Source: a virus (taxonomy: Duplodnaviria; Caudoviricetes). From it: a stretch of 52,384 bases of DNA. Below are positions 2,160 through 20,968 of this stretch, one piece after another. Numbering within the stretch: position 1 is the first letter of the stretch; the number at the start of each line of letters is the position of its first letter. Location of the stretch: positions 1-52,384 of IMG/VR virus record IMGVR_UViG_3300043410_000251, one strand, 5' to 3'. A program made the position numbers and the translations under genes. The notes under the pieces are model-generated. The model did not search any database, was not told where the DNA came from, and saw only the letters and a list, made by a program, of their open reading frames with translations.

Positions 2160-2221
2160 CCATCTATGTACTTGAATTCTTTTTCTTGATATGGGTGTTG
2201 TGGGTAAATCTAAAAGACTAG
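2156..2221 (+). CDS. 21-aa hydrophobic micropeptide (MTIYVLEFFFLIWVLWVNLKD)
   Basis: Read manually; ATGA-coupled to the upstream gene; fills the gap to the next RBS. Confidence 0.35.
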   Translation: MTIYVLEFFFLIWVLWVNLKD

Positions 2222-2230
2222 GAGACAGAG

Positions 2231-3656: not shown

Positions 3657-3672
3657 GCAAAAAGGAGAAGAA

Positions 3673-3873
3673 ATGAACTACCCCTACGGAGAAGATGACG
3701 ATGACATTCAAGAGTACATCAGCTACCGCAAAGCGTTTCCTAAGCGTGAGTACGTTCCGTTTGTTGACCGCAATGAAGTCCTAGAAGAAGTGGCTAAAGA
3801 GTTTGATAAGATGAAAGTCTTTGGCGATACGGCTGCAAGCTTTGCCATCTTTGTAAGGAACATGAAGAAATGA
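3673..3873 (+). CDS. hypothetical protein
   Basis: AAGGAG RBS, ATG at 3673; RNEVLEEVAKEF...FGDTAASFAIFVR. Confidence 0.65.
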   Translation: MNYPYGEDDDDIQEYISYRKAFPKREYVPFVDRNEVLEEVAKEFDKMKVFGDTAASFAIFVRNMKK

Positions 3874-4616: not shown

Positions 4617-4933
4617 AAATATTAGACCTCGTTAAATACGACCCTGAAAAAGGATGCTTTGTTTTGAAAGATAAGAAACCCGAACGTGCGCTTAACCCAT
4701 GGGAAGAGTTAGCACAGGTAGACCGCCCGAGTATCTTTTTGAAAGACCCATACTTCCGTGCCAAGACAGCGACAGGAACAATCAAAACCGAAGAAGGACT
4801 GGGCTACAAACAATTCGGGACATTCACCCGAGCAAAAGAGAGACAACCCAACAAACACGAAGGAGTACTAGAACATGCCAAGACCAAAACCACCAGAGCC
4901 CCTCAAGCCAAGGTTCATAAGGATGTCAGATAA
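4613..4933 (+). CDS. hypothetical protein
   Basis: ATG at 4613 coupled to the upstream stop. Confidence 0.55.
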   Translation: MKILDLVKYDPEKGCFVLKDKKPERALNPWEELAQVDRPSIFLKDPYFRAKTATGTIKTEEGLGYKQFGTFTRAKERQPNKHEGVLEHAKTKTTRAPQAKVHKDVR

Positions 4934-5081
4934 GCATTGGATTATCTTGCAGCATCTTGGTGGTGCTGAATGGTTACGAGGGACACTAGATAAAAAAGAT
5001 CCGTTCCCTAAAAAATATTACGAAAAACTAAAGTTAACCAACGAAGGAAACCATGAGCAGAATAATTACGTTCGACGCTGA
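4875..5081 (+). CDS. putative ribbon-helix-helix DNA-binding protein
   Basis: MPRPK...RFIRMSDKHW..LQHLGGAEWLR; AAGGAG upstream. Confidence 0.5.
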   Translation: MPRPKPPEPLKPRFIRMSDKHWIILQHLGGAEWLRGTLDKKDPFPKKYYEKLKLTNEGNHEQNNYVRR

Positions 5082-6876
5082 GACCTACTACGATAGAGAA
5101 TTCAGCCTGTCAAAGATAACAACTGAGGAGTACGTGCGTGATGACCGGTTTGAGATGATCGGTTTCTCATACAAGATCGATGACGAGCCCGCTCGTTGGA
5201 TCACAGGCGATGACGATTACATTCGCGCATCGTTGGAAGTCCTGCCTTGGAAGGAATCATTTGCACTGGCACACAACGCCATGTTTGATGCATCGATCCT
5301 GTCTTGGCGGTATGGCATCAAGCCGATGGCTTGGCTCGATACACTCTCGATGGCTCGGGCTGTGCGTGGTGCAGATGCCGGCAACAGTCTGGCCAAACTG
5401 GTTCAGCACTATGGCCTCGGTGCTAAAGGTGTGGAGGTGGACAACGCGATGGGTCTGCGCAAGAAGGACTTCAGCTCAGCTTCGCTTGAACGCTATGGCG
5501 AGTATTGCAAGAACGATACCGAGTTGTGTTGGTCTCTGTTTCATATCCTTGCACCCCACTTCAAGCAACCCGAACTCAAGCTGATTGACCTGACCATCCA
5601 GATGTTCTCCGATCCTGTGTTGGTGCTAGACACACCCCTGCTCGAGGCTCACCTCGAAGACGTGAAGGCGCGCAAAGAAAAGCTCATGCAAGCCATCGAG
5701 GCAAACAAAGACGAGCTGATGTCTAACCCACAGTTTGCAGAACTCTTGCGCAAGTGCGGTGTTGAGCCACCCACAAAGATCAGCATGACCACCGGCAAAG
5801 AGACCTTGGCTCTGGCCAAGAGCGATGAAGGCTTCAAGGCTTTGCTAGAACACCCTGACGAGCGCGTGCAGGCTCTGGTTGCAGCCAGGCTCGGTAACAA
5901 GTCAACGCTTGAAGAGACCCGCACCGAGCGGTTCATCAGCATCTCTAAGCGTGGTCCGATGCCTGTGCCCTTGCAGTACTACGCGGCTCACACTGGGCGG
6001 TGGGGCGGTACAGACAAGATCAACTTACAGAACCTGCCAAGCCGTGGTGCTAATGGTGGCAAGCTTAAGAAGGCGATCCGTGCCCCCAAGGGCTACGTGA
6101 TCATTGACTCAGACTCTGCGCAGATTGAGGCGCGTGTGCTTGCATGGTTCGCAGGACAGCTCGACTTGGTTGAAGCGTTCGAAAGGAAAGAAGATGTATA
6201 CAAAATCATGGCTTCTGCTATATACGGCAAGGGAGCAGAGGAAGTTACCAAAGAAGAAAGATTCGTGGGAAAAACCACGATTCTGGGATGTGGGTATGGC
6301 ATGGGGGCTCCTAAATTTGCAGCGCAACTCAAGACGTTCGGGACGGTGGTTGAAGATTCAGAAGCATCCCACATTGTCTCTACCTATCGCGCAACGTATC
6401 CTCTGATCCCTGAGTTGTGGAGGCAAGGTAACTCGGTACTGGAGGCCATCATGAACAACCAGTCTGTGCCGTTTGGTAATGGCTGTGTGGCCGTGAATGG
6501 TACAGAAGGTATCTTGATGCCCAACGGACTGCATCAGCCCTACCCAAACCTGCGCAAGGTGACCAACGAGGAAGGCCGTGAGCAGTTTGTCTATGACGCA
6601 CGACGTGGCGTGAACAAGATTTATGGTGGCAAGTTGGTGGAGAACATTTGCCAAGGCTTAGCCCGTTGTATTATTGGTGAGCAGATGATCCGTATTGCCA
6701 AGCGATACAAGACCGTGCTGACTGTGCATGATGCCGTGGCATGTATTGCCAGACAGGAAGAAGTAGACGAAGCCCTAGCCTACGTAGAAGAGTGCATGCG
6801 TTGGGTGCCAGAGTGGGCGACAGGATTGCCTCTGAACTGCGAAGCAGGGTATGGAGAAAGCTATGGAGACTGTTAA
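5053..6876 (+). CDS. DNA polymerase family A with 3'-5' exonuclease
   Basis: ExoI DAETY, ExoII HNAMFD, ExoIII YCKND; polymerase motifs [31 protein letters not shown]. Confidence 0.95.
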
Positions 6877-7735
6877 TGAATATCGTGTCAAGGTATCAGT
6901 TCGCAACAACCTGTTGCTGACTGCCCTCGAGGATGCCGGCTACACCAGTGTGGCTTCGTTTTGCAGAGCAGCTGGTGTTAGTCAAACCGCGATGGGGCGG
7001 TTGATTGCCATGAAAGAGCCACCACTTTTAAACACTGGCGAGTTCAGTGCGTTAGCTAAGAAAGTTATGGAGGAGCTGTGCGCACTGCCAACTGAGTTAT
7101 GGACACCACAGCAACTGACCATGAAGCTTAGCACCAACGTGGCCGAGCGCGATCTTGATATGAACGGAATGCGCGCAGCTCTAGGTGTGACTGCTGAGGA
7201 TGCGTTCCAGATGCTTGAGGTTGACGATAGTCTCTTTGATGAAGAGCGTAAGGCTAAAGTTATGGATGTGGTTGATACACTTACACCACGTGAACGGAAG
7301 GTCTTAATTTTGCGGTATGGTTTGGACGGATGTAAGGAACATACTCTTGATGAGATTGGACCTATGTTTAAGGTGGGAAAAGAAAGAATCAGGCAGATTG
7401 AAGCCAAAGCCCTGCGTAAACTAAAGCATCCATCCCGACTAGATACATTCAGAGATTTGCTAACTCCAAAGTCTTCGGCAGAAAAAGCTTGGGAAGCCAA
7501 GCAAAGTATTTTGCGAGAAGAAGCAGAAGAAAAAGAACGTGAGTTAAGATGGCAGGAAGCTAAGAAACGGCAACAGGAAGCCCAAGCAAAAGCAGATAAA
7601 GAATTTCGTGAACGTATGGCTCTGCGGGGTACAGATACAACATGGATGGAACACCTCAAACGCACGAAGCCAGAGCTACATGCACGGCTTCTTGAGATCA
7701 GCAAAAGAAACGCATACTTGGTATTAGACAGATGA
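6851..7735 (+). CDS. HTH + sigma70 region 4 domain protein
   Basis: [50 protein letters not shown] closely follows RpoD region 4; N-terminal XRE-like HTH; no region 2 visible. Confidence 0.85.
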
Positions 7736-8409
7736 ACATTACTTGGTCTTACAGTAGCCTGAGCCTCTTTGATCAGTGCCCTAAAAAGTACTTCCATCTC
7801 AAGGTGGAGAAGAGCATTGTCGAGCCCGAGTCGGATGCCATGAACTACGGCAAAGACTTGCACTTGGCGGCTGAGTTATTTATCCGTGACGGCAAGCCAC
7901 TCCCAGGTAAGTACGCCTACATTCAGCCCATGCTTGACACCTTGAACAAGCTCGAAGGCGAGAAGCTTTGCGAGTATGAGATGGGTGTGAAGTATGAAAA
8001 CGGTGACCTGATACCTTGCGACTTCCATGACCCTAACCGCTATTGGCGAGGCATCGCTGACCTGCTTGTGATCAATAGGGAAAAGCGGGAGGCTCGTCTG
8101 GTGGACTACAAGACCGGCAAGAGCGCGCAGTACGCAGACACCAAGCAGTTAAAGCTTTTGGCTGCAGCTACATTCTTGCACTTTCCTGACATTGAGAAGG
8201 TCAAGGCAGGGCTCTTGTTTGTGGTGGCCAAGGACTTCATCAAGGAGGACTACGATGTGGAAAATACTTACGATCTGTTCGCTCCGTTCCATCCGATTGT
8301 GGATCAGTTGGTGGCGTGCCACGAGAACAACGTGTGGAATCCCAAGCGCAACTTTACTTGCAAGAACTGGTGTCCCGTCCTAGAATGTTCCCATAACGGC
8401 AAGAGGTAA
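7732..8409 (+). CDS. PD-(D/E)xK exonuclease, Cas4/RecB-like
   Basis: SYSSL..F.QCP, G..LH, RGIADLL, LVDYKTG, QL..; C-terminal [10 protein letters not shown]. Confidence 0.88.
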
Positions 8410-8411
8410 CC

Positions 8412-8690
8412 ATGCCCCGCAATTACAAACGTGAATACGAAACGTACCAAGGTACGGAAGAGCAAAAGAAGAACCGTGCTCAGCGTAACAAAGCTCGTCG
8501 TGAGCTGACACGCGAAGGTAAAGTACATAAGGGTGACGGCATGGATGCCGCTCACGTGAAGGCTATTGATAAAGGCGGCTCTATCAAGAACGGTATCCGC
8601 GTGGAATCAGCAGCGAAGAACAGATCGTTTGCTCGCGACTCGAAACGCAACCTAGTGTCAGAGACAAGCAAGCGAGAGCGCAAGAAGTAA
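8412..8690 (+). CDS. small HNH-endonuclease-like protein
   Basis: RAQRNKARR...HKGDGMDAAHVK...GG...N....S...NRS. Confidence 0.55.
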   Translation: MPRNYKREYETYQGTEEQKKNRAQRNKARRELTREGKVHKGDGMDAAHVKAIDKGGSIKNGIRVESAAKNRSFARDSKRNLVSETSKRERKK

Positions 8691-8700
8691 TTCTGCAGGA

Positions 8701-8803
8701 ATCGTCTAGGACACGCAGACGTTAAAGCGAAGTGGGATCGGGTGGAAACCCCGAACGATAATAAAAATGCTTTGAAAGACCGCTTTCAGAGCGATTACGC
8801 ATC
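8701..8803 (+). ncRNA. candidate structured RNA / 5' leader of the helicase gene
   Basis: Stems CGTCT/AGACG (8703-07/8717-21), TCGGG/CCCGA (8738-42/8750-54) and a 10-bp hairpin 8769-78/8783-92. Confidence 0.35.
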
Positions 8804-8812
8804 GGAGAAAAC

Positions 8813-10360
8813 GTGGAAGTAGTAGACAACAGAGCACTTTTGTTGCGCGTACGCGACGGCTACCGGATCACCAACGTGATTCCAAAGAGCCGCATTATCA
8901 AAGAACATCCAGACCACCACGAGGTGTTGGTGCACTGGGGCTTGGAAGAAGTAAAGGTTCTGCGCAATCTCAAGATCAGTGGCGCGCCCTCACCCATCGA
9001 GGGGCAGTATGCGTGGAACGGAATGTACAAACCGTTCGATCACCAGAAGACCACGGCTTCTTTCCTGACACTTAACCGCAAGGCTTTCTGTTTCAACGAG
9101 CAAGGCACTGGCAAGACCGGCTCTGTTATCTGGGCAGCAGACTACCTCATGAAGATGAAGCTTGTGCGTAGGGTGCTTGTGATTTGCCCACTGTCCATCA
9201 TGGACTCAGCCTGGAGAGCAGACCTGTTTAAGTTTGCTATGCACCGCACAGTAGACATCGCTCATGGTGCCCGCGAGAAGCGTAAAGAAATTATCAACGG
9301 CAGTGCTGAGTTTGTGGTCATCAACTTTGATGGTGTAGAGATTGTTGCAGATGACATCGCCAAAGCTGGCTTTGATCTGATCGTGGTGGACGAAGCCAAC
9401 GCATACAAGAACCCACAGACAAAACGTTGGAAGGTGTTGGCCAACATCGTCAAGCCCGACACGTGGCTCTGGATGCTCACCGGTACACCGGCATCTCAGT
9501 CTCCAGTAGATGCGTTTGGTCTTGCTAAGCTTGTCAGCCCCGAGCGTGTACCCAAGTACATGGGTGCATTCAGAGACAGTGTGATGCATAAGGTCACGCA
9601 GTTTAGATGGGTTGTGAAACCTAATGCGGAAACCATTGTTCATGAAGCCTTACAACCCGCCATTCGTTTTACCAAGGAGCAGTGCTTGGACTTACCAGAG
9701 ATGACCTACGTGACGCGTGATGTACCGCTCACAGCACAACAACAGAAGTACTACGACCTGATGCGTAAAGAGATGCTTGTCACTGCAGCCGGCGAGCAGA
9801 TCACCACAATCAACGCGGCAGCCAACCTGAACAAACTGTTGCAGCTCTCTGGCGGTGCGGTGTACTCAGACACTGGCGAAGTTGTTGAGTTTGATGCAAG
9901 CAACCGCTTGAATGTTTTACGAGAAGTTATCGATGAGGCCAGTCACAAAGTACTGGTGTTCGTCCCCTACAGACATGCTATTCAAGTTGTCTCTGACGAG
10001 TTGAGTAAGCATTACACAGTTGACGTTATTCATGGAGGAGTCACAGCAAGAAAGCGCACAGAAATATTCAACAGATTTCAAACAGAGAAAGATCCACGCA
10101 TCTTGGTTATACAGCCACAAGCTGCAAGCCATGGTGTAACACTCCACGCAGCCGACACCATCGTCTACTGGAGTCCAGTAATGTCCGTAGAGACATACCT
10201 GCAAGCAAACGCACGCGTGCACCGTGCGGGTCAGAAGAATCCAAGCACAGTCTTTCACCTGCAAGGCAGCCAAGTAGAACGTAAGATTTACAAGATGCTC
10301 CAAGAGAAGGTGGACATCCATACAAAGATGACCGATCTATACGGGGAAATACTGAGTTAA
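8813..10360 (+). CDS. SNF2-type superfamily 2 helicase
   Basis: EQGTGKT, VICPLS, IVVDEAN, LTGTP, HGVTL, QANARVHRAGQ; GTG start with GGAG RBS. Confidence 0.92.
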   Translation: MEVVDNRALLLRVRDGYRITNVIPKSRIIKEHPDHHEVLVHWGLEEVKVLRNLKISGAPSPIEGQYAWNGMYKPFDHQKTTASFLTLNRKAFCFNEQGTGKTGSVIWAADYLMKMKLVRRVLVICPLSIMDSAWRADLFKFAMHRTVDIAHGAREKRKEIINGSAEFVVINFDGVEIVADDIAKAGFDLIVVDEANAYKNPQTKRWKVLANIVKPDTWLWMLTGTPASQSPVDAFGLAKLVSPERVPKYMGAFRDSVMHKVTQFRWVVKPNAETIVHEALQPAIRFTKEQCLDLPEMTYVTRDVPLTAQQQKYYDLMRKEMLVTAAGEQITTINAAANLNKLLQLSGGAVYSDTGEVVEFDASNRLNVLREVIDEASHKVLVFVPYRHAIQVVSDELSKHYTVDVIHGGVTARKRTEIFNRFQTEKDPRILVIQPQAASHGVTLHAADTIVYWSPVMSVETYLQANARVHRAGQKNPSTVFHLQGSQVERKIYKMLQEKVDIHTKMTDLYGEILS

Positions 10361-10367
10361 ATAATTC

Positions 10368-10395
10368 TTGACAATGTTAAGTTTGTGATTACAAT
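10368..10395 (+). promoter_or_regulatory. sigma70-type promoter TTGACA-16nt-TACAAT
   Basis: Consensus -35 and near-consensus -10 in the intergenic gap before the 10419 gene. Confidence 0.7.
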
Positions 10396-10418
10396 AGAGC
10401 GCACAAGGAGAAAATAAT

Positions 10419-10811
10419 ATGGACTACCCAACTGAAAAAGTAATCGCCGCATATATCAATTTGCGCGACGCTATCGCTGAGAAGCGTAAGCAACAAGAGG
10501 CAGAGATCCTGCATATGGAAGAGCAACTCGACATGCTCAACCAAGTGCTGTTGGCTCGCTGTGAAGAAGCCGGTGGAAACATTTCCGTCCCAGGAATTGG
10601 ACGTGTTAACCGCCGTGTTGATCATCAGTACTGGACTGACAACTGGCCTGCTTTCTACGAAATGATCAAGGAGCATGATGCATTCCATCTGCTACACAAG
10701 CGCCTGTCTATGAAGGCAGTGCGTGAGTTTCTTGAAGACAATCCTGACGCAACCCCACCTGGTCTGCATTCGGACAGCAAGTACGTGGTCACAGTGACCC
10801 GTGCATCTTAA
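10419..10811 (+). CDS. conserved phage replication-module protein
   Basis: AAGGAG RBS; coiled coil followed by NWPAFYEMI...LLHKRL...PPGL; lies upstream of the putative SSB. Confidence 0.7.
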   Translation: MDYPTEKVIAAYINLRDAIAEKRKQQEAEILHMEEQLDMLNQVLLARCEEAGGNISVPGIGRVNRRVDHQYWTDNWPAFYEMIKEHDAFHLLHKRLSMKAVREFLEDNPDATPPGLHSDSKYVVTVTRAS

Positions 10812-10831
10812 TTTTTAACCGGAGAAAATAA

Positions 10832-11713
10832 ATGACTGACGTAACTTTGTTTAAGGGCGGCATCCCCGCTCACTTGAAAAACGCTGAGCTCGATGCAGCA
10901 ACACTTGCCCTGATGGGTAACCAACCTGTTAAGGGACAATCAAACGCTAAGCGTATCTCTATCAAGGGTGGTGTGTGGCGTATGGTGGTGGACGGACAAG
11001 AAGTCGCTACCAACGAAGAGCGTGGCATGAACGTTGTGATCGTAGCTGCTGCGGCCAGTGAGTCACGCAAGTTCTATGCAGGTGCTTACGAAGAAGGTCA
11101 AGGTGCAAAAGCTCCCGACTGCTGGAGCACACTGGGTGACGTGCCTGATCCCCGCGCTAAGTCCCCACAATCAAACCGTTGCATGACCTGCCCACAGAAC
11201 ATTAAAGGTTCTTCTGGCCGTGGCGATGCACGTGCTTGCAAGTTTGAGCGTCGCCTTGCTGTGGTGCTTGAGAATGACCAACGCGGTGAGATCTTCCAGA
11301 TCGTTATCCCATCAAGCAGCTTGTGGAATTCTGACAACGGTAAGCTTGGCATCAAACCTTATGCAGCTTTCTTGGGCAGCCACGGCTTGAACGTGACGCA
11401 AGTTGTGACTGAGATGCGTTTTGATACAGCCGCCTCTGGTCAGAAGATTAACTTCAAGGCGGTTCGTCCTCTCGAGCCAGAAGAGATCGAGTTGATCCGC
11501 AGCTTGGCTAAGCACCCTGATGCCTTGCGTGCTATCGGCTCTACAACTGCCGAGATGGATGGTGCTGTGGCCGCCCCTGCACCTGCTGCCCCTGCCCCTG
11601 CGATTGAAGCACCTAAAGCTGCTGAGCCTGTGAAAGAGCCAGTCAAGCGTGAGAAGCCACAAGCGGCTGCTCCCAAGGATGTTTCGTCTATCTTGGACGA
11701 TTGGGCACAGTAA
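10832..11713 (+). CDS. putative single-stranded DNA-binding / annealing protein
   Basis: RISIKGG, PDCWS, C..CPQN, RAC..RRLAV; Ala/Pro linker and acidic-aromatic tail (ILDDWAQ); function inferred from context. Confidence 0.55.
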   Translation: MTDVTLFKGGIPAHLKNAELDAATLALMGNQPVKGQSNAKRISIKGGVWRMVVDGQEVATNEERGMNVVIVAAAASESRKFYAGAYEEGQGAKAPDCWSTLGDVPDPRAKSPQSNRCMTCPQNIKGSSGRGDARACKFERRLAVVLENDQRGEIFQIVIPSSSLWNSDNGKLGIKPYAAFLGSHGLNVTQVVTEMRFDTAASGQKINFKAVRPLEPEEIELIRSLAKHPDALRAIGSTTAEMDGAVAAPAPAAPAPAIEAPKAAEPVKEPVKREKPQAAAPKDVSSILDDWAQ

Positions 11714-11720
11714 AAAGTTC

Positions 11721-11813
11721 GGAGTGAGGATGTGCGTCGGGTTAGCGCCGGCGCGTCCCATTAACCGGGAGGACGCTAATTGAACACTGCTTTATGTGAG
11801 CCGTCCTCACTCC
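11721..11813 (+). ncRNA. candidate structured RNA with possible pseudoknot
   Basis: 12-bp closing stem 11721-32/11802-13; inner 8-bp stem 11733-40/11748-55; loop TTAGCG complementary to CGCTAA at 11774-79. Confidence 0.5.
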
Positions 11814-11826
11814 ACCTTTACATACC

Positions 11827-12054
11827 ATGTACGGATATACCCTTTCACTCATTGAAGCGAACAAACGCGCTTCTCGATTTAAGCTTGGTGTCAAACTAGG
11901 ACGCGCTTGCATTGCAGCGAACGTGCCTGTGTCTGATGTTGCGAATCACTTTGGCGTATCGCGCCAAACTATTTACTCCTGGTTTTATGGCCGGAGTGAG
12001 CCACACTGGCGGCATGAGCACGCCATTGAACAGTACATAGAAAAACTGGCGTAA
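11827..12054 (+). CDS. Cro/C1-type HTH regulator
   Basis: VSDVANHFGVSRQTIYSWFYGRSEP. Confidence 0.85.
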   Translation: MYGYTLSLIEANKRASRFKLGVKLGRACIAANVPVSDVANHFGVSRQTIYSWFYGRSEPHWRHEHAIEQYIEKLA

Positions 12055-12089
12055 GCCGCACAATAACGCTGTTTTAGAAATGTGAGTGT

Positions 12090-14912
12090 ATGACCTCAAG
12101 GAATCTCTTTCTCTCCACGGTGCTGCCGACAGAAGGCATCTACTGTGTGGTGGGATTAAAAAAGGGAACCTCGAAGCAGGAATTTGTTGGATCGGTCCCA
12201 GAGCTTACTGAGCTTGTAGGGCATCTAGTTGAACAGGGGTATGACGCATACTTTGGATGCGCCAAGTTCGAGACGGATGAAGCACGGACAACGAAGAACG
12301 CTAAGTGGTTCAAATCATTTTGGCTAGATTTAGACTGTGGAGAAGGAAAGAAATATGAATCTCAAGCGCAAGCGATAACTGCCCTACGTGAGTTCTGCAA
12401 AGACACGGGGCTACCCAAACCAATCATCGTTAACTCAGGCCGAGGCGTACATACATACTGGGCGTTAGAGAATGCGATTGGTTATAACGAATGGAAACCT
12501 GTTGCCGAGTCGTTGAAGAAACTGTGCGTGACGCACAACCTACATGCAGATCCTGTTGTCACTGCGGATGCAGCACGCATCTTGCGAGTACCTGATACCT
12601 TGAACTTCAAGAACGAAGAGTCACCGTATCCAGTTGAAATTATGTCGATGTCGCAGCCGGTGGAGTTTGCGGCATTCAAGGACAAAGTTGGTGTAGACAT
12701 GATGGCCACACTGGCCGCGTCACCCAAGCGTCCGCTTGATGAGACCACATTGGCGTTGCTAGGCAACCGTGTGTCTAAGTTTTCCACCATCATGATCAAG
12801 GGCAAAGAGGGTAAAGGTTGTGCGCAGCTTACTCATATTTACGTCAACCAGAAAACCATTGAGGAACCTCTATGGAGATCCGGTCTTTCTATTGCTCAAT
12901 TCTGTGAAGATCGGGACACGGCGATACACCGCCTTTCAAGTAAGCATGATGGCTACTCACCTGCGGGTACTGAAGAGAAGGCCGCACTTATCAAGGGGCC
13001 ACATACTTGCGCCACGTTTGAAAAGACAAATCCTGTTGGATGTGATGGGTGCCCACACAAAGGCAAGATCTCTTCCCCAATTCAGCTTGGTTCTGAAATC
13101 GCCAAGGCAACTGCTGAAGACAATATTGTCGTTATCAAGAATGAAACTTTGGGGCAAGAGGTCACAGTCGAGATTCCAGAATACCCATTCCCTTACTTCC
13201 GCGGCAGGAACGGCGGTGTCTACCGCAAGGCAAACAAGGGTGATGCCGAAGAGGGCTCGGATGAACCGGCAGAAGATATTCTGGTCTACGAACACGACCT
13301 CTATGTGGTCAAACGATTAGAAGACCCTGAGTTGGGTGAGATGGTGTGGATGCGTCTGCACCTGCCAAGAGATGGCATACGTGAGTTCTCTATTCCTCTG
13401 GCCAGTGTACTGGCTAAGGACAAGTTAAGAGATGTGATCGCGTCTAAGGGCGTGGCGGCATTGAACAAACAGATGGACAGCATCATGGCTTATATGACAC
13501 GTTGGGTAAAGGAATTACAACTTATGACAAATGCAGAGAAGTCCCGCCTCCAGTTTGGTTGGACAGCAGACAATACGTTTGTGGTGGGAGACCGCGAGAT
13601 CAAAGTGGGGGAGACAATTTACAGCCCACCATCTTCATCCACTGCCAATCTGGTGCCAGCCTACGCTAAGAAAGGTGCATTAGAAAACTGGAAGCGTGTG
13701 GCCAACTGGTATGCGCGCCCAGGCATGGAGGCTCGTGCATTCAATCTGTTTGCAGGCTTTGGTACACCGCTCTTGAAGTTCACCAATCTTAAAGGTGTGC
13801 AGATTCACCTGACAGATGATGGCTCAGGCACTGGTAAGACTACGATCCAGATGATGATCAACAGTATCTTTGGTCACCCATCAGAGACCATGATGCTCGA
13901 GCAGGACACGTTCAAATCTAAGATGCACCGCATGGGTACGATCCAGAACATGCCTGCAACGATTGATGAGATCACCAACATGCACAATGATGAAGTCAGT
14001 AACTTGGCTTACATCAGTACACAAGGCCGTGGCCGTAACCGCATGATGTCGCAGTCTAATTCTGAGCGTCTGAACAATACCTCGTGGGCTCTGATCTTGT
14101 GGACCTCTGGTAACCGCAGTGTGCACGATGTGCTGTACAGCATGAAGACTTTTCCCGATGGCGAGTTGGCTCGTGTGGTGGAGATCAATGTGCCCCGCGA
14201 TACAAGCATGACCAAGGAAGAAACCGACGAGCTGTACAACCTGATGTTTGAGAACTACGGCGTAGCAGGCGAAGTCTATATGCAGTATGTGGTGGCTCAC
14301 CTCGATGCCATCAAAGAAAAGATCAAAGAAGTCCAGGCGAAGTTTGATGCCGATGCCGGCTTGACTCAGCGTGAACGCTTTTACTCTGCACTTGCAGCTG
14401 TGGCTGTTGTAGGCGGCATGATCGCTAAGCGCCTTGGCTTGCATGATATTGAGACCGGTTCTGTCTATCAGTGGGCAGTGCAGTACTTCTCTAACACCAA
14501 GTCTGCGGTCAAGCCTACGGCATCCGGCCCTCTAGATCAGATCGGTAGCTACCTCAACGAGTTCAACCAGTCTGTGCTTGTGGTCAAGAGCGAGGTGGAC
14601 AGCCGTACAAACATGGAGCAGGCTCCGATGCAAATGCCGCATAGAGAGCTGCTAGTACGCTACGAGCCTGACACCCATCTGTTGTTCCTGACCACAAAGC
14701 ATTTCCGTGACTGGTGTACAAAGCACCAGACTTCTTACAAGTCAATCAGCGAAGCGTTGGAAAAGGACGGCGTTGCGCAGCTTGGGGTTAAGAAACGTCT
14801 GGCTCGTGGTACAAAGCTGAATACCCCTGCGGTGAACACCATGGTGCTCGATACCCGCAAGATCGATGGCTTTGATATGCAGGAGTTCATGCCAGATGGA
14901 AATAAAGAATGA
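12090..14912 (+). CDS. primase-helicase (RepB/AEP-like primase + DUF927 + P-loop helicase)
   Basis: WLDLDCG, NSGRGVHTYW, ARILRVP, CDGCPH, GSGTGKTT, TIDEIT. Confidence 0.88.
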   Translation: MTSRNLFLSTVLPTEGIYCVVGLKKGTSKQEFVGSVPELTELVGHLVEQGYDAYFGCAKFETDEARTTKNAKWFKSFWLDLDCGEGKKYESQAQAITALREFCKDTGLPKPIIVNSGRGVHTYWALENAIGYNEWKPVAESLKKLCVTHNLHADPVVTADAARILRVPDTLNFKNEESPYPVEIMSMSQPVEFAAFKDKVGVDMMATLAASPKRPLDETTLALLGNRVSKFSTIMIKGKEGKGCAQLTHIYVNQKTIEEPLWRSGLSIAQFCEDRDTAIHRLSSKHDGYSPAGTEEKAALIKGPHTCATFEKTNPVGCDGCPHKGKISSPIQLGSEIAKATAEDNIVVIKNETLGQEVTVEIPEYPFPYFRGRNGGVYRKANKGDAEEGSDEPAEDILVYEHDLYVVKRLEDPELGEMVWMRLHLPRDGIREFSIPLASVLAKDKLRDVIASKGVAALNKQMDSIMAYMTRWVKELQLMTNAEKSRLQFGWTADNTFVVGDREIKVGETIYSPPSSSTANLVPAYAKKGALENWKRVANWYARPGMEARAFNLFAGFGTPLLKFTNLKGVQIHLTDDGSGTGKTTIQMMINSIFGHPSETMMLEQDTFKSKMHRMGTIQNMPATIDEITNMHNDEVSNLAYISTQGRGRNRMMSQSNSERLNNTSWALILWTSGNRSVHDVLYSMKTFPDGELARVVEINVPRDTSMTKEETDELYNLMFENYGVAGEVYMQYVVAHLDAIKEKIKEVQAKFDADAGLTQRERFYSALAAVAVVGGMIAKRLGLHDIETGSVYQWAVQYFSNTKSAVKPTASGPLDQIGSYLNEFNQSVLVVKSEVDSRTNMEQAPMQMPHRELLVRYEPDTHLLFLTTKHFRDWCTKHQTSYKSISEALEKDGVAQLGVKKRLARGTKLNTPAVNTMVLDTRKIDGFDMQEFMPDGNKE

Positions 14913-15120
14913 GGGCGCGGAAGTCCACATTGAGTGGCACCTGCTAACCCCAGGTGCTTCTTTCTTCATTCCCGCTATACAGACAACCCAGTTGGCCCGT
15001 GCAGTACGCAAGGCGGCTACCAGGCGGGGGATCCGCCTGACCCACAGGGTTTGTGTAGATAAGGGTTTTTACGGAGTTAGGTTTTGGAGAATCGCAACGG
15101 ATGTGTTACATTCCGACTAA
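14896..15120 (+). CDS. small conserved hypothetical protein
   Basis: W..L.PG.SFFIP...GVRFWR pattern; ORF 14866..15120, ATG at 14896 after AGGAG. Confidence 0.65.
   Translation: MEIKNEGAEVHIEWHLLTPGASFFIPAIQTTQLARAVRKAATRRGIRLTHRVCVDKGFYGVRFWRIATDVLHSD
15084..15112 (+). promoter_or_regulatory. putative sigma70 promoter (TTGGAG-17nt-TACATT, extended -10 TG at 15104-05)
   Basis: Seen in the sequence; would drive a transcript from about 15119 to the terminator. Confidence 0.4.
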
Positions 15121-15188
15121 CGTATGTAGTTCATGCGTTTTTCTCCTTCCTAAGTTGGTTTGCGCCCCTACCCCGGGGCGCTTTTTTT
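15119..15188 (+). ncRNA. candidate anti-Shine-Dalgarno small RNA
   Basis: Contains TAGTTCATGCGTTTTTCTCCTT, complementary to AAGGAGAAAA..ATGAACTA-type initiation regions; flanked by a putative promoter and an intrinsic terminator. Confidence 0.4.
15162..15188 (+). terminator. intrinsic terminator ending the replication arm
   Basis: GCGCCCC-TACCCC-GGGGCGC followed by T7. Confidence 0.85.
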
Positions 15189-18100
15189 CACCGTTCAATA
15201 CCGGCTTTTTCCAACACTAGGTAACCCTTCTTAGCCACCTGATCGTATTGATCCATCAGCTTATTGATTTGAGCTTGACGGGCATCAGGATCCATATCGT
15301 TTTGCGCCTTTAAGTAGTTAACTCGTTTGCGAATCAAGTTCATCTGATTCTGCAAGTTACGCAGGACTGGGGCAGCGGCATACCGTTTTTTGTTTTCCTC
15401 ATCAGCCATGTAAGTCTGGGCTTCTTCTTTTCTGCCCTGGCTCACCAAACGGTTGAATTGGTTAACAACTTCTTGAGATGTATGTGTGATCTCGTAGAAG
15501 TCCGTAGCTGCACTGCTGGTGTTGGGGTTGGTCATGAACGACTTGAAGAACGGCTGCTCTTCAATGTTCTTAGTAGGTGGCACCTTGCCGTTAGCTTCTG
15601 CAATCATCGAGCTTGCTACACCCATGGTGAATGTACCCAACTCAGCAAAGTAAGCTTGTGTCAGATGGTCAATCATTGCGGGTGACAGACCTGCTTTGTC
15701 TAAGCCCATGGCGCTGAGTGCTTTAGCAGCCTCACCTGCGTTAGGACCACGACTTGCAACAGGTAGTGCCTGGTCACTCATACCCTCGATAGGACGGCGT
15801 GAGTAGAACGAGTAGTTTGTTACAGCTTCCAAGATTGGCTTAGCGCCCTGGGGAATAATGATGCCTTCACCAGGCAGGTTATGGCGGATACCGTCAACAA
15901 CCGAGTGCAGGTATTCCTTACCCGTGCTAGTGCCGGACATGTAACGCACGGAAGCTTCTGGCAACGTCTTGAAGAAAAAACCAACTTCAAACGGCACAGG
16001 GACTTTGATGAACGACTTGCCGTCAGTTCCCCATGGGTTAGGCATGAGCCAGTTGTTATCCTTAACGTTGTCGGGCAGCTTTTTGTACTCATCATCGTCT
16101 TGCAGTGACATGGCGTACAGCGTAGAGAGCACCACCATAATAGCGGCTCGGCTCATGAACAAACGTTGAGCCTCTGCCTTTTCTTCTGGGTTCAAACCAT
16201 AACCTGTAGCTGCGCGGTAAAGCGTGTCCATACTGGTGATGGAAGCAGAGAAGAACGGGATCATGTGACGCAAAGCATGCAGAGTCTTAGAGTTACCATG
16301 CACAGAGAAGTTGATAGACTCACGGGCACGGAACGCGCCATAGTCGTTAGCCTCATCCACACTCATACCTTGCTTGAGACCTTGGTCTCTGGCTTTCTTA
16401 AAGATGGCCACGCGGGTTGCAGCATCAGACGCTTCGTGAGCTTGCATAACTTTATGCAGCATCTTATCGAGCACAGTCTGGTTAAGCTTCTGGGTACCGG
16501 CTTGCTTCAAGAACTGATGGATATCAATCGTTGAGTCCACCTGACCGATGACACCACGAGAAGCCAAGAACTTAGCTTCAGCAGAATTATTGGCCAAGAT
16601 CTTTGCGTATTCGGCAACGGCATGGAACGGAGTCACGATGCCAGAGTTAGCCACCATCGTTGCATGCAAGGGGTCACGAATCAACTGCTTGATCCAGTAC
16701 ATTGGGTTGAGCAGTGCAGTAGTACGCAGGACTTGTGTCGTAGCAGACAGGGCCTTGAGCAAAGGACCCATCTCATAGTTCATGATTTGGAACGCGGCCA
16801 GATCGTTGGGGTTGTCCAAGATAACGGACACATAACCGTTTGCATCGGCGTTAGGATCTGTTGGATCGCGATAACGCAGGTTCACATCAGGATCAGTTGG
16901 CTTGGCTGCAATCTTGGCAGCCCCCAAAGCTTTGAGTTGGCCGACAGCAACCTTACGAGTCTGGTTTTGATAAGCAGCAGCGATCATGGAGGCATAGTGC
17001 TTGTCCATGTTCTCCCAGATGTTACGTTGCAACTCACTGCCTGACAAATGCTCGAGTTCACGAACAGTCTTAGTGCCACCAGCTTTGCCTGTGTAGCCTT
17101 CTTGTTTCAAGGGAGCCAGGTCTTCACGAGCCGCATAGAGAGGTACATAAGACTTCATGCTGCGGTAGTAAGCAGCCTGTGCAGGGGACAAGAGCCCTGC
17201 GTTCTCCCACAGATCGATCAGGCTGTTTGTGGTCTTGCCCCAAATGTCAAAGACTTCTTGCATCTCTGGCACGGCTTGCATCTGCTGCTCAGCCCAGTTG
17301 ATATGGGCTTGCGTTACTTGACGCTCACGATTGACATGCAAGTCTTCGCGGTAACGGGCACGAATAGCTTTAGCCTCGTTGACCAACTTCATAACTACAT
17401 TGAGCGGGGCATTAGCTGCCTTGGCTTGCTTAGCTTGCTGAATCTTGCTCTTAGCAACAGCCAGCATTTGTGCGGCTTTGGCACGGCGCTGTGCGTCGAT
17501 CTTTAAGATTTCTTTACCGCGCAGGATACGAGCGACTTCACCCACAAACTCACGGCCTGTCATGCCGGAACCCTGCACCACTGCGTTCTTATCAAGGTTG
17601 TCGGCCACCAACTGCGACCGCGCTAGGTTAGCCGGATCTTGTTGGATGATGATAGTACCGTCGTTGTTAACAACGGGAATTCCTGACTGCAAACCATTTT
17701 TGATCAGGTTGATCACTTGGTTGAACGAGCGGATCAACATGTCTGCGCGAAGCTGACCGTTCTGGAATACAGGCAAACTCTTCAGGGTCTGCGCCAAACC
17801 AGACGTAGGATCCACGGCTGCAATACGGAAGCGTGTCCAGAAGTCGTTATCGTTCCAGTTCTTCTGTACTTTACCCACCACAGTCTTAACTTGCTGAGCA
17901 GTTGTCTGAGGTGCCTGGAGCTTAGTCAGCTTAGGCAACGTATACGGTTGTCCAGGTGCGGGGACATTGACCGGCCCTGCTGTGGCTTGGATCGGACCGC
18001 GGGTAGCGGTACTGCTTTGAATCGGACCCAACGAGGTGTTGAGCAGCTGTTCAGACAAATAAATAACTTGAGACAGAGCAGTCTCTGTTCTGGGTGACAA

Positions 18101-20968
18101 GCCAAGCACTGTGCGGATTGCTTCCACAAACTTAGACATCACACTACGGCGTCCCTTGTAGGGGATAGACTCAAGCACTTCTTGCATGAAGTTACTTGTC
18201 ATGCCGTGAGCAAGCATCTCATGTGGCTGGTTATACCGAGTACCTCTTGCGCCTTGGTTACCCAACGCATTAGAACCTGACAAAACTTTTTCTTCCGAAC
18301 GCGTCAGTGTCTCGCCACGAGCTTTTTTATCCGTCAAGTGCTTAAGAACAAATTTACTAAGCCTAGTCAGTTCAGTTACAAACTTGCCGGCATCTGTCGT
18401 AGGATTGTTCTCCCCATAGATAACCAGCGATGCAGTAACTGCATGGATCGACTCGTGTGTAGTCGTACGGTACTGGGCACCAAAGGGTTGACCTGAACCT
18501 TTACCAGCAACGCTGATATCTATGTACTTACCTCTTGGCTGCACACGACCTAGAACACCTGGATCGTAACCACCAACTTTTAAAATTTCTGCACGGCTAG
18601 TTGGAACAGTAAACTTGAATGTGTAACCAAGCTTTGTTAGTTCTTTTGCGCGGTTGTACAGTGCCTTAGCAATCTGACGGTTGGATTCAGGACCGCTCTG
18701 TGACAAGAACTTCAGCACTTGGCTAAATGTCTTACCTTTAATATCAGACTCGATATCCGCCGCCATCTCTTGACCGTGCTTAGTGAACGCGGCTTTAATT
18801 TCAGCTTCTGATTTGCCTTGTTCCCCAGCCTTGCGGTCAAGGTGGGCTTTCATGACCTTGGCAAAGTTAGTACCTGTGCTACGTCCTGCAGCGACGGATT
18901 TATTCCAAGCGGCTTGCTCTTCTGGGCTCAGTTGATCGTAGTCAGGCTGTGCAGGATCGCGGTGACGGTCCCACTCTACCGCAGGATCTAATGCAATTGG
19001 CTGCGTTCCTGTTCCTGTTGGAGGCGTTCCAGCAGGTACCCCGCCAGGTACCACTCTAGGTCCGACACCTCCTGGAGTTCCTTGGGGGGTTGCCGGAGGT
19101 TGGGGTTGACCAGGAACTCCCACATCAGGTGGAGCTTCTCCGGGTGCATTGGGGGTAGCTGCAGGTGGTTCAGCATTTCCTTCTCCTGGGAAGAGCTCTC
19201 CTTGGGGAGCAGCCATGAATGAACGATTTCTAATACCTTCTTCAATGTCTAACCCTGTTAGTCGTTGATAAGCCGCATCGAGCAATTCTTGCTGAGCGGG
19301 AGAAAGTGCTCTACCTTGACCAAGCTTATTCTGTTGATACAGCTGCTCCATTGCAGCTGCAAGGTCTAGCTCTGGATTAGCAGTGATCAAATTCTGTACA
19401 CGCTCTTCCACGATCTTTGCAGTGGACGAGTTGTTGCCGCGCATCACTTTAGAGGTGCTTGGATCTGCCTTGGCAATATCAATAACTTTGCGCAAGAACC
19501 CACCGATAGTCTCGGGTGCCGGAGCTTTTGGTGTTTGTGCAGGTGTTTGCTCAGGTTGTTGTGGCGCTTGGCCACGGAACAATTCACCTTGGCCGCCCAT
19601 AGGCAGCTCACCCTGTACTTGAGGGGGCAGTTCACCGGCAGGACGATCAGGACCAACCAATTGTTTAGGATCAGCTAATTGACCTTGAGGTACAACACCG
19701 GCCAGATCACGTTCTGGAGTACCCTCTGGTGTGAGCTTAATTGGCGAATATGGACCCACTGGCGCATTAGGATTAGCGGCAACACCGGGAGCCGCAGGGG
19801 CTGCGGGCGGCATAGGCATGCTAGGCGGCATCGCACCTTGGGGTTGTGCAGGTTGCACTACTGGAGGCTGTGCGGGAGGAGCAGGTGGTTGCGTAGGAGG
19901 CAAAAGTGTTCCGGCAGGAACGTTAGGTAAGTTACCACCGCTAATAGCACCGGCACCGCCACCAAGCAACGCACCACCAAGAGCACCAAGACCCGCTGCG
20001 GATCCAACACCCTTCATCAAATCAGTTTCAGGAATTACATCTTTGATGTTGTAATTTTTAGCAAAGGCACCGCCACCTTCTTCGATACCTTCACTCAGTG
20101 CCTCACCGGTAAGACCTTTAACAAAGCCCTGACCAGGCACTCTGCGGCCCATCAATGCACGCTCAATCGACGCCCCACCTAATTTATCGAGTCCTTTAGT
20201 TGCCGCCAAACTAACAGCCGCGGCTTCAATAGCCGCAATACGACCCTTACCTAGGGCCACACCATGAGCTTCTTCTTCGGGCATGCCTTGTGCACGCAAC
20301 TGCTTGTACAACTGCTCATAGGTATCAGAACCAACATCCGTACCTTGCATTACCGCATTACCAGCAACCGCGCCACGGACGCCGTATTTAGACAATGCTT
20401 CTTCAGTAGCATTACGCATGAGCAGCTTAGCGCCACCCTTGGTGAACATACCAAAACCATAACTTCCGATTAAGCTAGGGATCTGCTCAAAGAAGAATGA
20501 AGAAATCAGCGCAGGATCTTTGGCTGTTTCTTTGATGGATGTAATGAACTCATCAGTAAAGCCTTCGGCCTTCTGAATTTTCTCTGCACGTGCTTGTTCC
20601 TTTGCACGGAGAATGGCGCTCTTCTGTGCTTGGCCGTAGTCCTCTAACTGCTTACCATACGCACCAAGAACCGCACCTGGACCCTCTTTAAATAGTCCAG
20701 GGGTTTCGTCAGGAGAAACTTCGGATGCTTCTCTTGGTCTCTCGCCGGTAATTAGACGGCCTAATTGATCTGGAAACTGTGCAGCTTGACCTAAGCCAGA
20801 ACCTAAGCTGGCTAGGATATCTGACCCTGCTTCACCCCACGTGCGCTTTTCTTTAAGCGCAAGGTCAGGGAACTCCTCAAGAACTTTCCTGCGGACTTCC
20901 TCATCGGGGACATCATCAGGAATATCTTTGAGTAGCACCCCATTTGGAAGCCGCAGATTGTATGCCAT
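15188..20968 (-). CDS. large internal virion / ejection protein with zincin-like HExxH and C-terminal LPD38-like domain
   Basis: 1926 aa; last gene of the virion arm; THESIHAVT...HEMLAH; YKKLPDNVKDNNW...IKVPVPFEVGFFFK; Pro-rich linkers. Confidence 0.75.
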   Translation of the reverse strand: MAYNLRLPNGVLLKDIPDDVPDEEVRRKVLEEFPDLALKEKRTWGEAGSDILASLGSGLGQAAQFPDQLGRLITGERPREASEVSPDETPGLFKEGPGAVLGAYGKQLEDYGQAQKSAILRAKEQARAEKIQKAEGFTDEFITSIKETAKDPALISSFFFEQIPSLIGSYGFGMFTKGGAKLLMRNATEEALSKYGVRGAVAGNAVMQGTDVGSDTYEQLYKQLRAQGMPEEEAHGVALGKGRIAAIEAAAVSLAATKGLDKLGGASIERALMGRRVPGQGFVKGLTGEALSEGIEEGGGAFAKNYNIKDVIPETDLMKGVGSAAGLGALGGALLGGGAGAISGGNLPNVPAGTLLPPTQPPAPPAQPPVVQPAQPQGAMPPSMPMPPAAPAAPGVAANPNAPVGPYSPIKLTPEGTPERDLAGVVPQGQLADPKQLVGPDRPAGELPPQVQGELPMGGQGELFRGQAPQQPEQTPAQTPKAPAPETIGGFLRKVIDIAKADPSTSKVMRGNNSSTAKIVEERVQNLITANPELDLAAAMEQLYQQNKLGQGRALSPAQQELLDAAYQRLTGLDIEEGIRNRSFMAAPQGELFPGEGNAEPPAATPNAPGEAPPDVGVPGQPQPPATPQGTPGGVGPRVVPGGVPAGTPPTGTGTQPIALDPAVEWDRHRDPAQPDYDQLSPEEQAAWNKSVAAGRSTGTNFAKVMKAHLDRKAGEQGKSEAEIKAAFTKHGQEMAADIESDIKGKTFSQVLKFLSQSGPESNRQIAKALYNRAKELTKLGYTFKFTVPTSRAEILKVGGYDPGVLGRVQPRGKYIDISVAGKGSGQPFGAQYRTTTHESIHAVTASLVIYGENNPTTDAGKFVTELTRLSKFVLKHLTDKKARGETLTRSEEKVLSGSNALGNQGARGTRYNQPHEMLAHGMTSNFMQEVLESIPYKGRRSVMSKFVEAIRTVLGLSPRTETALSQVIYLSEQLLNTSLGPIQSSTATRGPIQATAGPVNVPAPGQPYTLPKLTKLQAPQTTAQQVKTVVGKVQKNWNDNDFWTRFRIAAVDPTSGLAQTLKSLPVFQNGQLRADMLIRSFNQVINLIKNGLQSGIPVVNNDGTIIIQQDPANLARSQLVADNLDKNAVVQGSGMTGREFVGEVARILRGKEILKIDAQRRAKAAQMLAVAKSKIQQAKQAKAANAPLNVVMKLVNEAKAIRARYREDLHVNRERQVTQAHINWAEQQMQAVPEMQEVFDIWGKTTNSLIDLWENAGLLSPAQAAYYRSMKSYVPLYAAREDLAPLKQEGYTGKAGGTKTVRELEHLSGSELQRNIWENMDKHYASMIAAAYQNQTRKVAVGQLKALGAAKIAAKPTDPDVNLRYRDPTDPNADANGYVSVILDNPNDLAAFQIMNYEMGPLLKALSATTQVLRTTALLNPMYWIKQLIRDPLHATMVANSGIVTPFHAVAEYAKILANNSAEAKFLASRGVIGQVDSTIDIHQFLKQAGTQKLNQTVLDKMLHKVMQAHEASDAATRVAIFKKARDQGLKQGMSVDEANDYGAFRARESINFSVHGNSKTLHALRHMIPFFSASITSMDTLYRAATGYGLNPEEKAEAQRLFMSRAAIMVVLSTLYAMSLQDDDEYKKLPDNVKDNNWLMPNPWGTDGKSFIKVPVPFEVGFFFKTLPEASVRYMSGTSTGKEYLHSVVDGIRHNLPGEGIIIPQGAKPILEAVTNYSFYSRRPIEGMSDQALPVASRGPNAGEAAKALSAMGLDKAGLSPAMIDHLTQAYFAELGTFTMGVASSMIAEANGKVPPTKNIEEQPFFKSFMTNPNTSSAATDFYEITHTSQEVVNQFNRLVSQGRKEEAQTYMADEENKKRYAAAPVLRNLQNQMNLIRKRVNYLKAQNDMDPDARQAQINKLMDQYDQVAKKGYLVLEKAGIER

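Follow-up and report, generated by a model that had tools for sequence, protein, structure and literature searches.

A predicted small RNA gene at the junction of two gene arms

Exactly where the + and - gene arms of the viral contig IMGVR_UViG_3300043410_000251 converge, a short unit (15084-15188, + strand) lies at the edge of the coding sequence, which raises the question of what this unit produces and on which genes its product might act. The contig comes from IMG/VR and was analysed over its whole length of 52,384 bases (hereafter the window; estimated completeness 83%). We consider it moderately probable that the unit is the gene of a phage small RNA (sRNA) that represses, by pairing with ribosome-binding sites (RBSs), an early gene of its own phage encoding a protein of 130 amino acids (aa) and, less consistently, other early genes. 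The RNA is most likely a trans-acting translational repressor of early genes. The coordinates of the features are collected in Table 1.

The predicted promoter combines a weak -35 box (TTGGAG, 15084-15089), a spacer of 17 nucleotides (nt) and an extended -10 element, TGtTACATT (15104-15112, with TG at 15104-15105 and TACATT at 15107-15112). The transcription start was set 7 nt past the -10 box, at about 15119, and coincides with the foot of the 5' hairpin in all 16 copies of the unit for which folds were printed. The predicted RNA of about 70 nt (about 15119-15188) has three parts, i.e. a 5' hairpin, an open stretch with UUUUCUCCUUCC and a terminator. The seed in the open stretch is complementary to RBSs of the type AAGGAGAAAAACG, and its CU motif has a probability of being unpaired of 0.79 in the window copy. 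The loop and 3' arm of the 5' stem-loop (GUAGUUCAU) are complementary to the AUG(A/G)ACUAC that starts the genes at 3673 and 10419. The terminator has its U-run on the + strand only, and the last base of this run, 15188, is the sole overlap (1 base) with the - strand gene, at the end of a 1926-aa open reading frame (ORF) including its stop codon. In silico, this promoter, terminator, short length and position at the edge of coding sequence are those of a trans-encoded base-pairing sRNA; no target gene is overlapped on the opposite strand, as it would be for a cis-antisense RNA of the OOP or sar type.

The initial annotation had already described the promoter (TTGGAG-17-TACATT with extended TG) and an intrinsic terminator at the junction of the arms, and both are confirmed in the sequence, with the stem and T7 reaching 15188. 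It had also described a non-coding stretch of about 70 nt. This holds for the RNA body, which begins at the stop codon of an upstream small ORF, whereas 15084-15120, and with it the promoter, are the last codons of that conserved ORF. On the - strand, the readable mini-ORFs vary in start codon, frame and length. Finally, the pattern TGNTANANT is rare in the window (7 sites on both strands, against 26.9 +/- 5.6 expected from shuffles), which is what selection against stray host-type promoters would give. This depletion is consistent with a host polymerase that reads the pattern as a promoter.

Table 1. Features of the window and their coordinates (kcal/mol values are predicted hybrid energies).
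Feature	Position	Strand	Basis
Promoter, sigma-70 type	15084-15112	+	sequence; predicted
5' stem-loop: AACGUAUG / loop UAGUU / CAUGCGUU, 8 pairs including one G.U	15119-15139	+	hairpin listing, minimum free energy fold
Seed CGUUUUUCUCCUUCC; 15140-15150 unpaired in the fold	15136-15150	+	folding, complementarity
Intrinsic terminator GCGCCCC-UACCCC-GGGGCGC + U7 (stem 15162-15181)	15162-15188	+	hairpin listing
Window counterpart of hairpin H0: AUGUGUUA (15101-15108) pairs with UAACGUAU (15118-15125), 8 pairs	15101-15125	+	read from sequence only
Predicted primary target site: Shine-Dalgarno (SD) sequence, spacer and start of the 130-aa gene	10405-10427	+	complementarity, duplex energy
Target gene, 130 aa, between the SNF2 helicase and a 293-aa gene	10419-10811	+	
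Secondary candidate site: SD region of 66-aa gene (2690-2890), 13/13 complementary	2674-2686	+	-21.5 kcal/mol; 5/500 shuffles as low
Secondary candidate site: SD region of 52-aa gene (599-757), 11 nt	585-595	+	
Secondary candidate site: SD region of DUF3310 gene (1040-1495), 9 nt	1028-1036	+	
Secondary candidate site: SD AAAAAGGAGAAG + AUGAACUAC of 66-aa gene (3673-3873)	3658-3681	+	-26.3 kcal/mol; 0/500 shuffles as low
Small conserved ORF (74 aa; most relatives, about 66 aa)	14896-15120	+	alignment, 10 invariant columns; 82 relatives in viral contigs
+ arm, early/replication genes	1-15120	+	gene annotation
Family A DNA polymerase	5053-6876	+	
SNF2 helicase	8813-10360	+	
DUF927 primase/helicase	12090-14912	+	
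LPD38 polyvalent protein, 1926 aa; first gene of the convergent arm	15188-20968	-	

Conservation of the unit in related viral contigs

Related viral loci were collected through the primase (41 loci) and through a profile of the small ORF (80 loci). The unit is present in about 64 of the 80 related viral contigs. It is complete 3' of the small ORF in 59 of them and cut by contig ends in three more; in addition, four loci do not show the motif at the end of the ORF (L051, L055, L103 and L111), and in two of these (L103 and L111) a covariance model located the unit. The remaining 14 loci are without it (L050, L101, L104-L110 and L116-L120). In the most distant clade (L104-L110, L118 and L119), a hairpin, CCCTACCCTG...CAGGGTAGGG (about 1690-1880), takes the place of the sRNA after the small ORF. 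An A-run precedes this hairpin, which gives it the shape of a minus-strand terminator, and a conserved box, CTAGCAGGGG, comes after it; it may be a different element.

From these loci and the window, 47 unique copies were obtained. All of them present the -10 pattern TAnAnT, a T-run at the end and a CUCC/UCCU motif, and 42 present the extended form TGnTAnAnT. The predicted RNAs measure 54-80 nt (median 70). The median probability of being unpaired is 0.94 for the CU motif vs. 0.45 for the remainder of the RNA, and the motif is the more open part in 46 of the 47 copies, i.e. the seed is conserved and predicted to be accessible. The three-part layout is common to the 16 copies with printed folds (seven from the clade of the window) despite differing hairpin sequences. 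The terminator hairpin was read in the window, in 31 copies of the main clade and in the 16 printed folds, and its helix displays compensatory changes at four of seven pairs in relatives. In the main clade, the 5' hairpin (H1) is 96% paired. The predicted fold, with its 5' hairpin, unpaired CU-rich seed and terminator hairpin, is thus supported by conservation. Moreover, the order of promoter, CU motif and terminator is kept in relatives with a primase identity of only about 35-55%, and the position at the convergent junction is invariant among relatives. The CTCCT-plus-terminator arrangement noted in the initial annotation is therefore shared by relatives of the window.

A covariance model (R1) was built from the 31 main-clade copies. 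It finds one copy per complete genome, with scores of 98-110 bits in the main clade, and its sole hit in the window is 15082-15188 (20.7 bits, E-value 0.011 over 404 kb). In G005, a genome of the window clade that is 72% complete, the unit can be recognised by eye, but the model does not detect it at E <= 1. A search of the whole window against Rfam 15, a library that we take to include phage c4 and sar, returned no match at the gathering threshold. The best sub-threshold models on 14800-15400 were VrrA (18.6 bits for a gathering score of 50), mmgR RF00519 (18.2 for 41) and RF02278 (17.4 for 50). The search for transfer RNA and transfer-messenger RNA found none, and no description of the element was found in the literature, supplementary files being outside this search. 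Taken together, these comparisons argue that the sRNA gene is real and conserved, and that it forms a previously undescribed family.

Predicted pairing with the start of a conserved early gene

We then considered the genes on which the RNA could act. For this purpose, the proteins of the early arms were clustered and the orthologue groups were screened for start regions matching the RNA, in a set of 22 genomes (the window, five relatives with long contigs and 16 others represented by their early arms). The candidate target obtained by this approach is the 130-aa gene, which lies 4.7 kb upstream of the sRNA in the window, on the same strand. Its orthologues (about 133 aa) are present in all 22 genomes, about 4.9 kb upstream. 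In the window, the target site, AAGGAGAAAA-nnnn-AUG-n-ACUAC, is complementary to the RNA in a single register at 18 of 23 positions (10 + 3 + 5 bases), and the predicted hybrid reaches -26.0 kcal/mol, a value as low being found in 2 of 500 shuffles.

In 14 of the 22 genomes, the start region of the orthologue carries at least 9 nt complementary to the sRNA of the same genome. The match averages 8.95 nt for own pairs vs. 6.98 nt for foreign pairs (P about 5e-5, 20,000 permutations). Of the 22 start regions, 9 have their own sRNA as the best-ranked partner and 18 have it in the top three. Compared with the other start regions of its genome, the target comes first in 10 cases and no lower than third in 17. 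The same test was flat for the controls, i.e. the primase (P = 0.31), polA (P = 0.54) and a 90-aa gene (P = 0.86), and a 65-aa gene also gave no signal. Moreover, the start site of the 130-aa gene is kept through compensatory changes, except in 8 of the 22 genomes. Thus, G003 associates GAGAGAGGGAG with CUCCCUCUCUC (GGGAG with CUCCC), G007 associates AGGAGAGUG with CACUCUCCU (GAGUG with CACUC), and G008 associates ACAAAGGAAA, an SD without GGAG (AAAGGAAA), with UUUCCUUUGU (UUUCCUUU). In G018, the match extends over 14 nt (GAGAAAGGAGAUCA).

The 130-aa protein has no Pfam family and no match in the PDB. It matches phrog_13900, labelled 'minor head protein', and the 78 homologues that were found are all hypothetical or without a name. 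Its structural model (predicted local distance difference test, pLDDT, of 87) shows a long helix at the N-terminus and, after it, a beta region. Uncharacterised phage proteins, together with one 'host-nuclease inhibitor' and one 'Siphovirus Gp157', have the nearest folds (template modelling score, TM, of 0.46-0.62), and the fold assignment is weak. In four loci with an sRNA match of 6-7 nt (L009, L010, L013 and L040), a CU-rich tract (ttcctcttttt) stands right before the SD of the orthologue. Such a tract in the leader could be a built-in, cis-acting anti-SD.

Predicted pairing with other early genes

Complementarity was also counted over all early start regions, against 300 shuffles of the RNA that preserve the CUCC cores. 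Across the 22 genomes, uninterrupted complementarity to the RNA of the same genome extends over at least 9 bases in 57 early start regions, vs. 11.5 +/- 3.2 in the shuffles, none of which reaches 57. In the window alone, the count is 4 vs. 0.47 +/- 0.66 expected, and none of the 300 shuffles reaches 4. These matches are confined to one arm. Among six long contigs, matches of at least 9 nt concern 23 of 210 genes on the same strand vs. 1 of 315 on the opposite strand (P = 5e-9, Fisher test), yet the late arm also uses AAGGAG sites. The two arms also differ in RBS type: of the 15 early start regions that bear GGAG, 8 continue with AA, vs. 3 of 20 late ones. In addition, pairs of an sRNA with its own arm exceed foreign pairs after removal of row and column effects (P = 2e-4). 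Predicted pairing is thus beyond generic SD complementarity. An earlier scoring with RNAduplex (43-nt RNA against 51-nt start regions) gave inflated and uninformative energies and was replaced by contiguous complementarity.

Within the window, the gene at 3673 has the top hybrid and the top cofold gain (free-energy difference, ddG, of -19.0; rank 1 of 73). The early genes at 599, 3673 and 10419 all begin with AUG(A/G)ACUAC. The initial annotation had started from the reverse complement of 15121-15150, a 30-mer that is quoted correctly and is unique in the window, and from its 13/13 match at 2674-2686, which is exact. Taken alone, this 13-mer match is not beyond chance (4 matches with at most two mismatches vs. 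1.29 expected; 6 of 100 shuffles reach 4), and the 66-aa gene at 2690-2890 forms a singleton cluster. The resemblances listed there for the starts at 599, 1040, 3673 and 10419 are real. In relatives, signals weaker than that of the 130-aa gene were obtained for the SNF2 gene (P = 2.5e-4; 4 of 22 genomes) and the 293-aa gene (P = 1.7e-3; 3 of 22), and a gene of about 395 aa is matched in 4 of 9. The shuffle tests, the confinement to one arm and the covariation with the RBS at 10419 all lend support to the trans-acting sRNA silencing early and replication genes that the initial annotation had suggested.

These observations suggest the following mechanism. Host RNA polymerase would start at the extended -10 promoter in the end of the small ORF and stop at the terminator, which would yield the RNA of about 70 nt. 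Pairing in trans with the SD and start of the 130-aa gene would involve the seed together with the loop and 3' arm of the 5' hairpin, which prolong it. Less consistent partners that share the same RBS 'dialect' would be the genes at 2690, 599, 1040 and 3673 in the window, and the SNF2, 293-aa and about 395-aa genes in relatives. Pairing would block binding of the 30S ribosomal subunit and lower the translation of the paired genes. Repression would probably become stronger with rising numbers of phage genomes and thus of RNA copies, and the structural arm on the opposite strand would be spared.

Evidence against the repressor model and alternative explanations

Several observations weigh against such a repressor. 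For the 130-aa gene, 8 of the 22 genomes have no 9-nt match at the start (G005, G006, G009, G010, G011, G017, G020 and G021); these show only the generic 5-7 nt, and so do further loci (7 nt in L003, 7 nt in L015 and 6-7 nt in the L009 group). In the window itself, this gene takes third place for contiguous match and, among 73, fifth place for cofold gain. More generally, in 5 of the 22 genomes no early start region reaches 9 nt, an energy-based cross-genome matrix (6 x 6) shows no own-pair advantage, and any CU-rich RNA easily matches purine-rich SD regions. The permutation tests ignore the relatedness of the genomes, and genes were called arm by arm with a simple, crude caller. The 16 sequencing runs listed for 13000-17000 are all DNA and none is RNA, the promoter, the start and the RNA being predictions. 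Bacterial searches identified no host, hence neither Hfq nor another helper is assigned. Finally, a second hairpin, H0 (alignment columns 16-55, e.g. L078:1702-1741), encloses the -10 box in the main clade.

H0 has an inner helix UGCUAG/CUAGCA, with the loop AGUUCGCC, and an outer helix that includes the stop codon of the small ORF. This outer helix covaries, with changes on both sides at four of six pairs, and the type of stop codon (TGA or TAA) covaries with C or U at its partner column in H0. An RNA spanning the '-10' box therefore exists and folds, and the conservation of the box could be partly structural. For the main clade, the unprompted RNAalifold consensus is H0 plus the terminator, not the 5' hairpin. 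H0 and H1 share bases and are thus mutually exclusive. In nine sequence-by-pair cells, the inner hairpin helix has U.G on the + strand, which would be A.C on the - strand, so the folding strand is the + strand. The window counterpart of H0 contains the -10 box and the stop codon of the ORF, and likewise excludes the 5' stem-loop. Given the covariation of H0, a read-through mRNA across the -10 box also matters; H0 may work as a switch between the short RNA and this mRNA, as a site of processing, or in both ways.

H0 is also central to an alternative that we regard as unlikely, in which the unit has no promoter of its own and is the structured 3' untranslated region (UTR) of the early operon, formed by H0, a CU-rich spacer and the terminator. 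Its role would be in mRNA 3'-end stability, in processing (e.g. at an RNase III-type site) or in termination at the convergent junction, and the complementarity to RBSs would be a by-product of pyrimidine-rich sequence, or would belong to a regulatory RNA released only by processing. The main-clade consensus and the covarying outer helix with its stop codon agree with this view, as do the weakness of the -35 box, which overlaps conserved FW codons, and the fact that the RNA is a prediction beside runs that are all DNA. However, TAnAnT is invariant and TG mostly kept, including in clades beyond those in which H0-like pairing was sought, and the conserved A30 and T32 lie in the loop of H0, so that pairing cannot explain their conservation. 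Moreover, the predicted start meets the foot of the 5' hairpin in printed folds from several clades, the promoter motif is depleted elsewhere in the window, and a by-product would not covary with the start region of one gene. As a processed 3' UTR sRNA would act likewise, this alternative mainly concerns how the RNA is made. In another reading, which is quite unlikely, the RNA mimics the anti-SD tail of the 16S rRNA, sequesters strong RBSs of the host and mainly targets host mRNAs or general translation, matches in the phage being secondary. The seed is indeed CU-rich like the 16S 3' end, and the sub-threshold Rfam matches include CU-motif sRNAs (RF02278, 17.4 bits, and RF00519, 18.2 bits). 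Nevertheless, the flanks of the seed vary by clade, tracking the RBS dialect of the own early arm and one phage gene, and the late arm with its AAGGAG sites is almost unmatched.

The other alternatives take the - strand as their starting point. In one of them, which we hold to be very unlikely, the RNA is a cis-antisense insulator that triggers cleavage or termination of late transcripts reading into the early arm. On the side of the late operon, no U-run stands behind the shared hairpin; this hairpin directly follows the stop codon of the 1926-aa ORF (the - strand then reads AAACCAAC, not U's). The small RNA would be fully complementary to the read-through, and the invariant position at the convergent junction also fits. 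This proposal nonetheless leaves unexplained the conserved, exposed CU seed and the covariation with a start 4.7 kb away, and insulation could be an additional role of the RNA. A functional - strand was also proposed in the initial annotation, where AAGGAGAAAAACGCAUG would be a real RBS with a minigene, MNYIR; in variants of this idea, the sequence would be the remnant of a decayed gene start, or the tail of late-operon transcripts that read through would carry GGA-rich sites for protein binding. In the window, the - strand does read a near-perfect SD and an ATG (15135-15133) with good spacing, and mini-ORFs of 5-9 codons are readable in other clades. The peptide is not conserved, however: L044 has ATA for ATG, L043 (a 97% relative) has no stop, and the mini-ORFs of the main clade start with TTG or GTG and lie in different frames because a 1-nt indel (CGCC/CGCCC) shifts the frame. 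In addition, all 47 copies carry the promoter box and the U-run on the + strand, the U.G variants of the helix would be A.C mismatches on the - strand, and nothing is conserved downstream on that strand except the antisense of the small ORF. The minigene was abandoned on these grounds, a functional - strand being highly improbable, and a CsrA-type reading of the - strand was set aside as well. A replication-primer or origin RNA, by analogy with an early view of OOP, was likewise rejected, as it does not account for the covariation with a start region.

A wider version of the repressor model is possible but, in our opinion, rather doubtful. The RNA would be an RNA-only counterpart of T4 RegB for the whole set of early genes, and its gene would additionally be built as a switch. 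The early arm would use an RBS dialect of its own (GGAGAAAA in the window clade, GGAGAGAG in the main clade), and a 70-nt RNA whose seed tracks this dialect would, with increasing genome copy number, shut off early genes and leave the late arm unaffected. As for the switch, both the promoter and the upstream ORF's stop codon would lie in H0. Folding of read-through mRNA would mask part of the seed, which would be displayed only by the separately started short RNA or by an mRNA translated up to that stop.

Genomic context and relatives of the phage

The DNA runs holding this sequence are labelled as freshwater, aquatic, sediment, pond or plain metagenomes. Against 50,697 phage records, neither blastn with 14400-15900, nor tblastn with the small ORF, nor a search with the main-clade element gave any match. 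According to the primase, the nearest cultured phage is Pseudomonas phage Rollin (31%), which has different genes after the primase and no hit to the covariance model (best E-value 0.63). In 185,579 bacterial genomes, the element pattern had no hit, and none of the 27 pattern hits of the profile of the 130-aa protein in bacterial genomes was confirmed. Therefore, no prophage copy and no host were found.

The small ORF is always immediately 5' of the sRNA gene. Its motif is M.I.N.G..IEWH..FFIP..GVRFWR[VI], and the protein has no match in Pfam, PHROG or the PDB, with an AlphaFold2 (AF2) model at a pLDDT of 89.7. In the window, this ORF is nine codons longer than in most relatives and thereby reaches through the -10 box. 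In L003 (85% primase identity), an extra gene (6317-6590) is inserted between the primase and the small ORF, and the sRNA unit still comes after the small ORF. A helix-turn-helix protein of 75 aa matching HTH_28 (E-value 3e-5, just below the Pfam cutoff) is encoded directly before the primase (11827-12054) and is a possible transcription regulator of the early arm.

Comparison with known regulators

Among phage RNAs, the c4 antisense RNA of P1 and P7 (77 nt) binds around an RBS in its own operon, with its complementary stretches placed in loops, and blocks translation (PMC12197685). The two RNAs are alike in being phage RNAs of about 70-77 nt that pair, here by prediction, with the RBS region of a gene of their own phage. 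They differ in that c4 controls the antirepressor of temperate phages, i.e. immunity, whereas the candidate target here is a Gam/Gp157-like early gene of the replication module, and several further early genes may be targets. There is also no similarity in sequence or structure, and no Rfam family at threshold. To our knowledge, a CU-rich seed centred on the SD is not a feature of c4.

Two other short phage RNAs are sar of P22 (68/69 nt), which blocks the initiation of ant translation by pairing, and OOP of lambda (77 nt), which adjoins replication genes, is transcribed toward the end of a neighbouring gene and is tabulated as cis-acting (PMC12197685). They share with our unit a short length, an own promoter and an intrinsic terminator, all predicted in our case. 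Since sar is transcribed from the strand opposite its target and OOP is cis-acting, both are fully complementary to their targets. In contrast, the window RNA overlaps no opposite-strand gene beyond 1 base, its predicted target is 4.7 kb away and the pairing is partial. CU-rich or C-rich seeds that mask SD sites are found in bacterial sRNAs such as RsaE/RoxS (Firmicutes), the RF02278 toxic sRNA (Betaproteobacteria) and MmgR (RF00519). The resemblance concerns an unpaired pyrimidine-rich motif complementary to SDs, the potential for multiple targets and a terminator-ended RNA of about 60-150 nt. Unlike this RNA, RF02278 and RF00519 are bacterial chromosomal sRNAs, and the window scores below their gathering thresholds.

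Trans-acting phage sRNAs are also on record. VpdS of VP882 regulates phage and host mRNAs (PMC12197685), and PreS of lambda targets the host dnaN (10.1101/2024.10.31.621285). Both regulate by base pairing in lytic growth, and our candidate would be, like them, a trans-encoded phage sRNA with an intrinsic terminator. Unlike our case, theirs are temperate phages with known hosts, and Hfq dependence is demonstrated for both; the best-supported target here is a phage gene.

The endoribonuclease RegB of T4 inactivates many early mRNAs at GGAG in initiation regions, strong sites being A-rich 3' of GGA (PMC3014915). The early arm of the window has GGAGAA in 8 of its 15 GGAG-bearing start regions, similar to the sites described there, and the seed is complementary to exactly this sequence. 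RegB is a protein nuclease that cuts, whereas the RNA proposed here would mask; it would be a functional analogue and not a relative, and early shut-off is our inference.

Targets have been established for few phage sRNAs, the majority of which belong to temperate phages that infect model hosts (PMC12197685). The family described here is known only from uncultured freshwater phages, for which sequence comparison alone led to a testable target pair with natural compensatory variants. If the RNA acts as suggested here, phages without cultured relatives would time or dose their early proteins through the masking of RBSs by an RNA, and their sRNAs and RBSs would constitute a ready-made set of orthogonal pairs.

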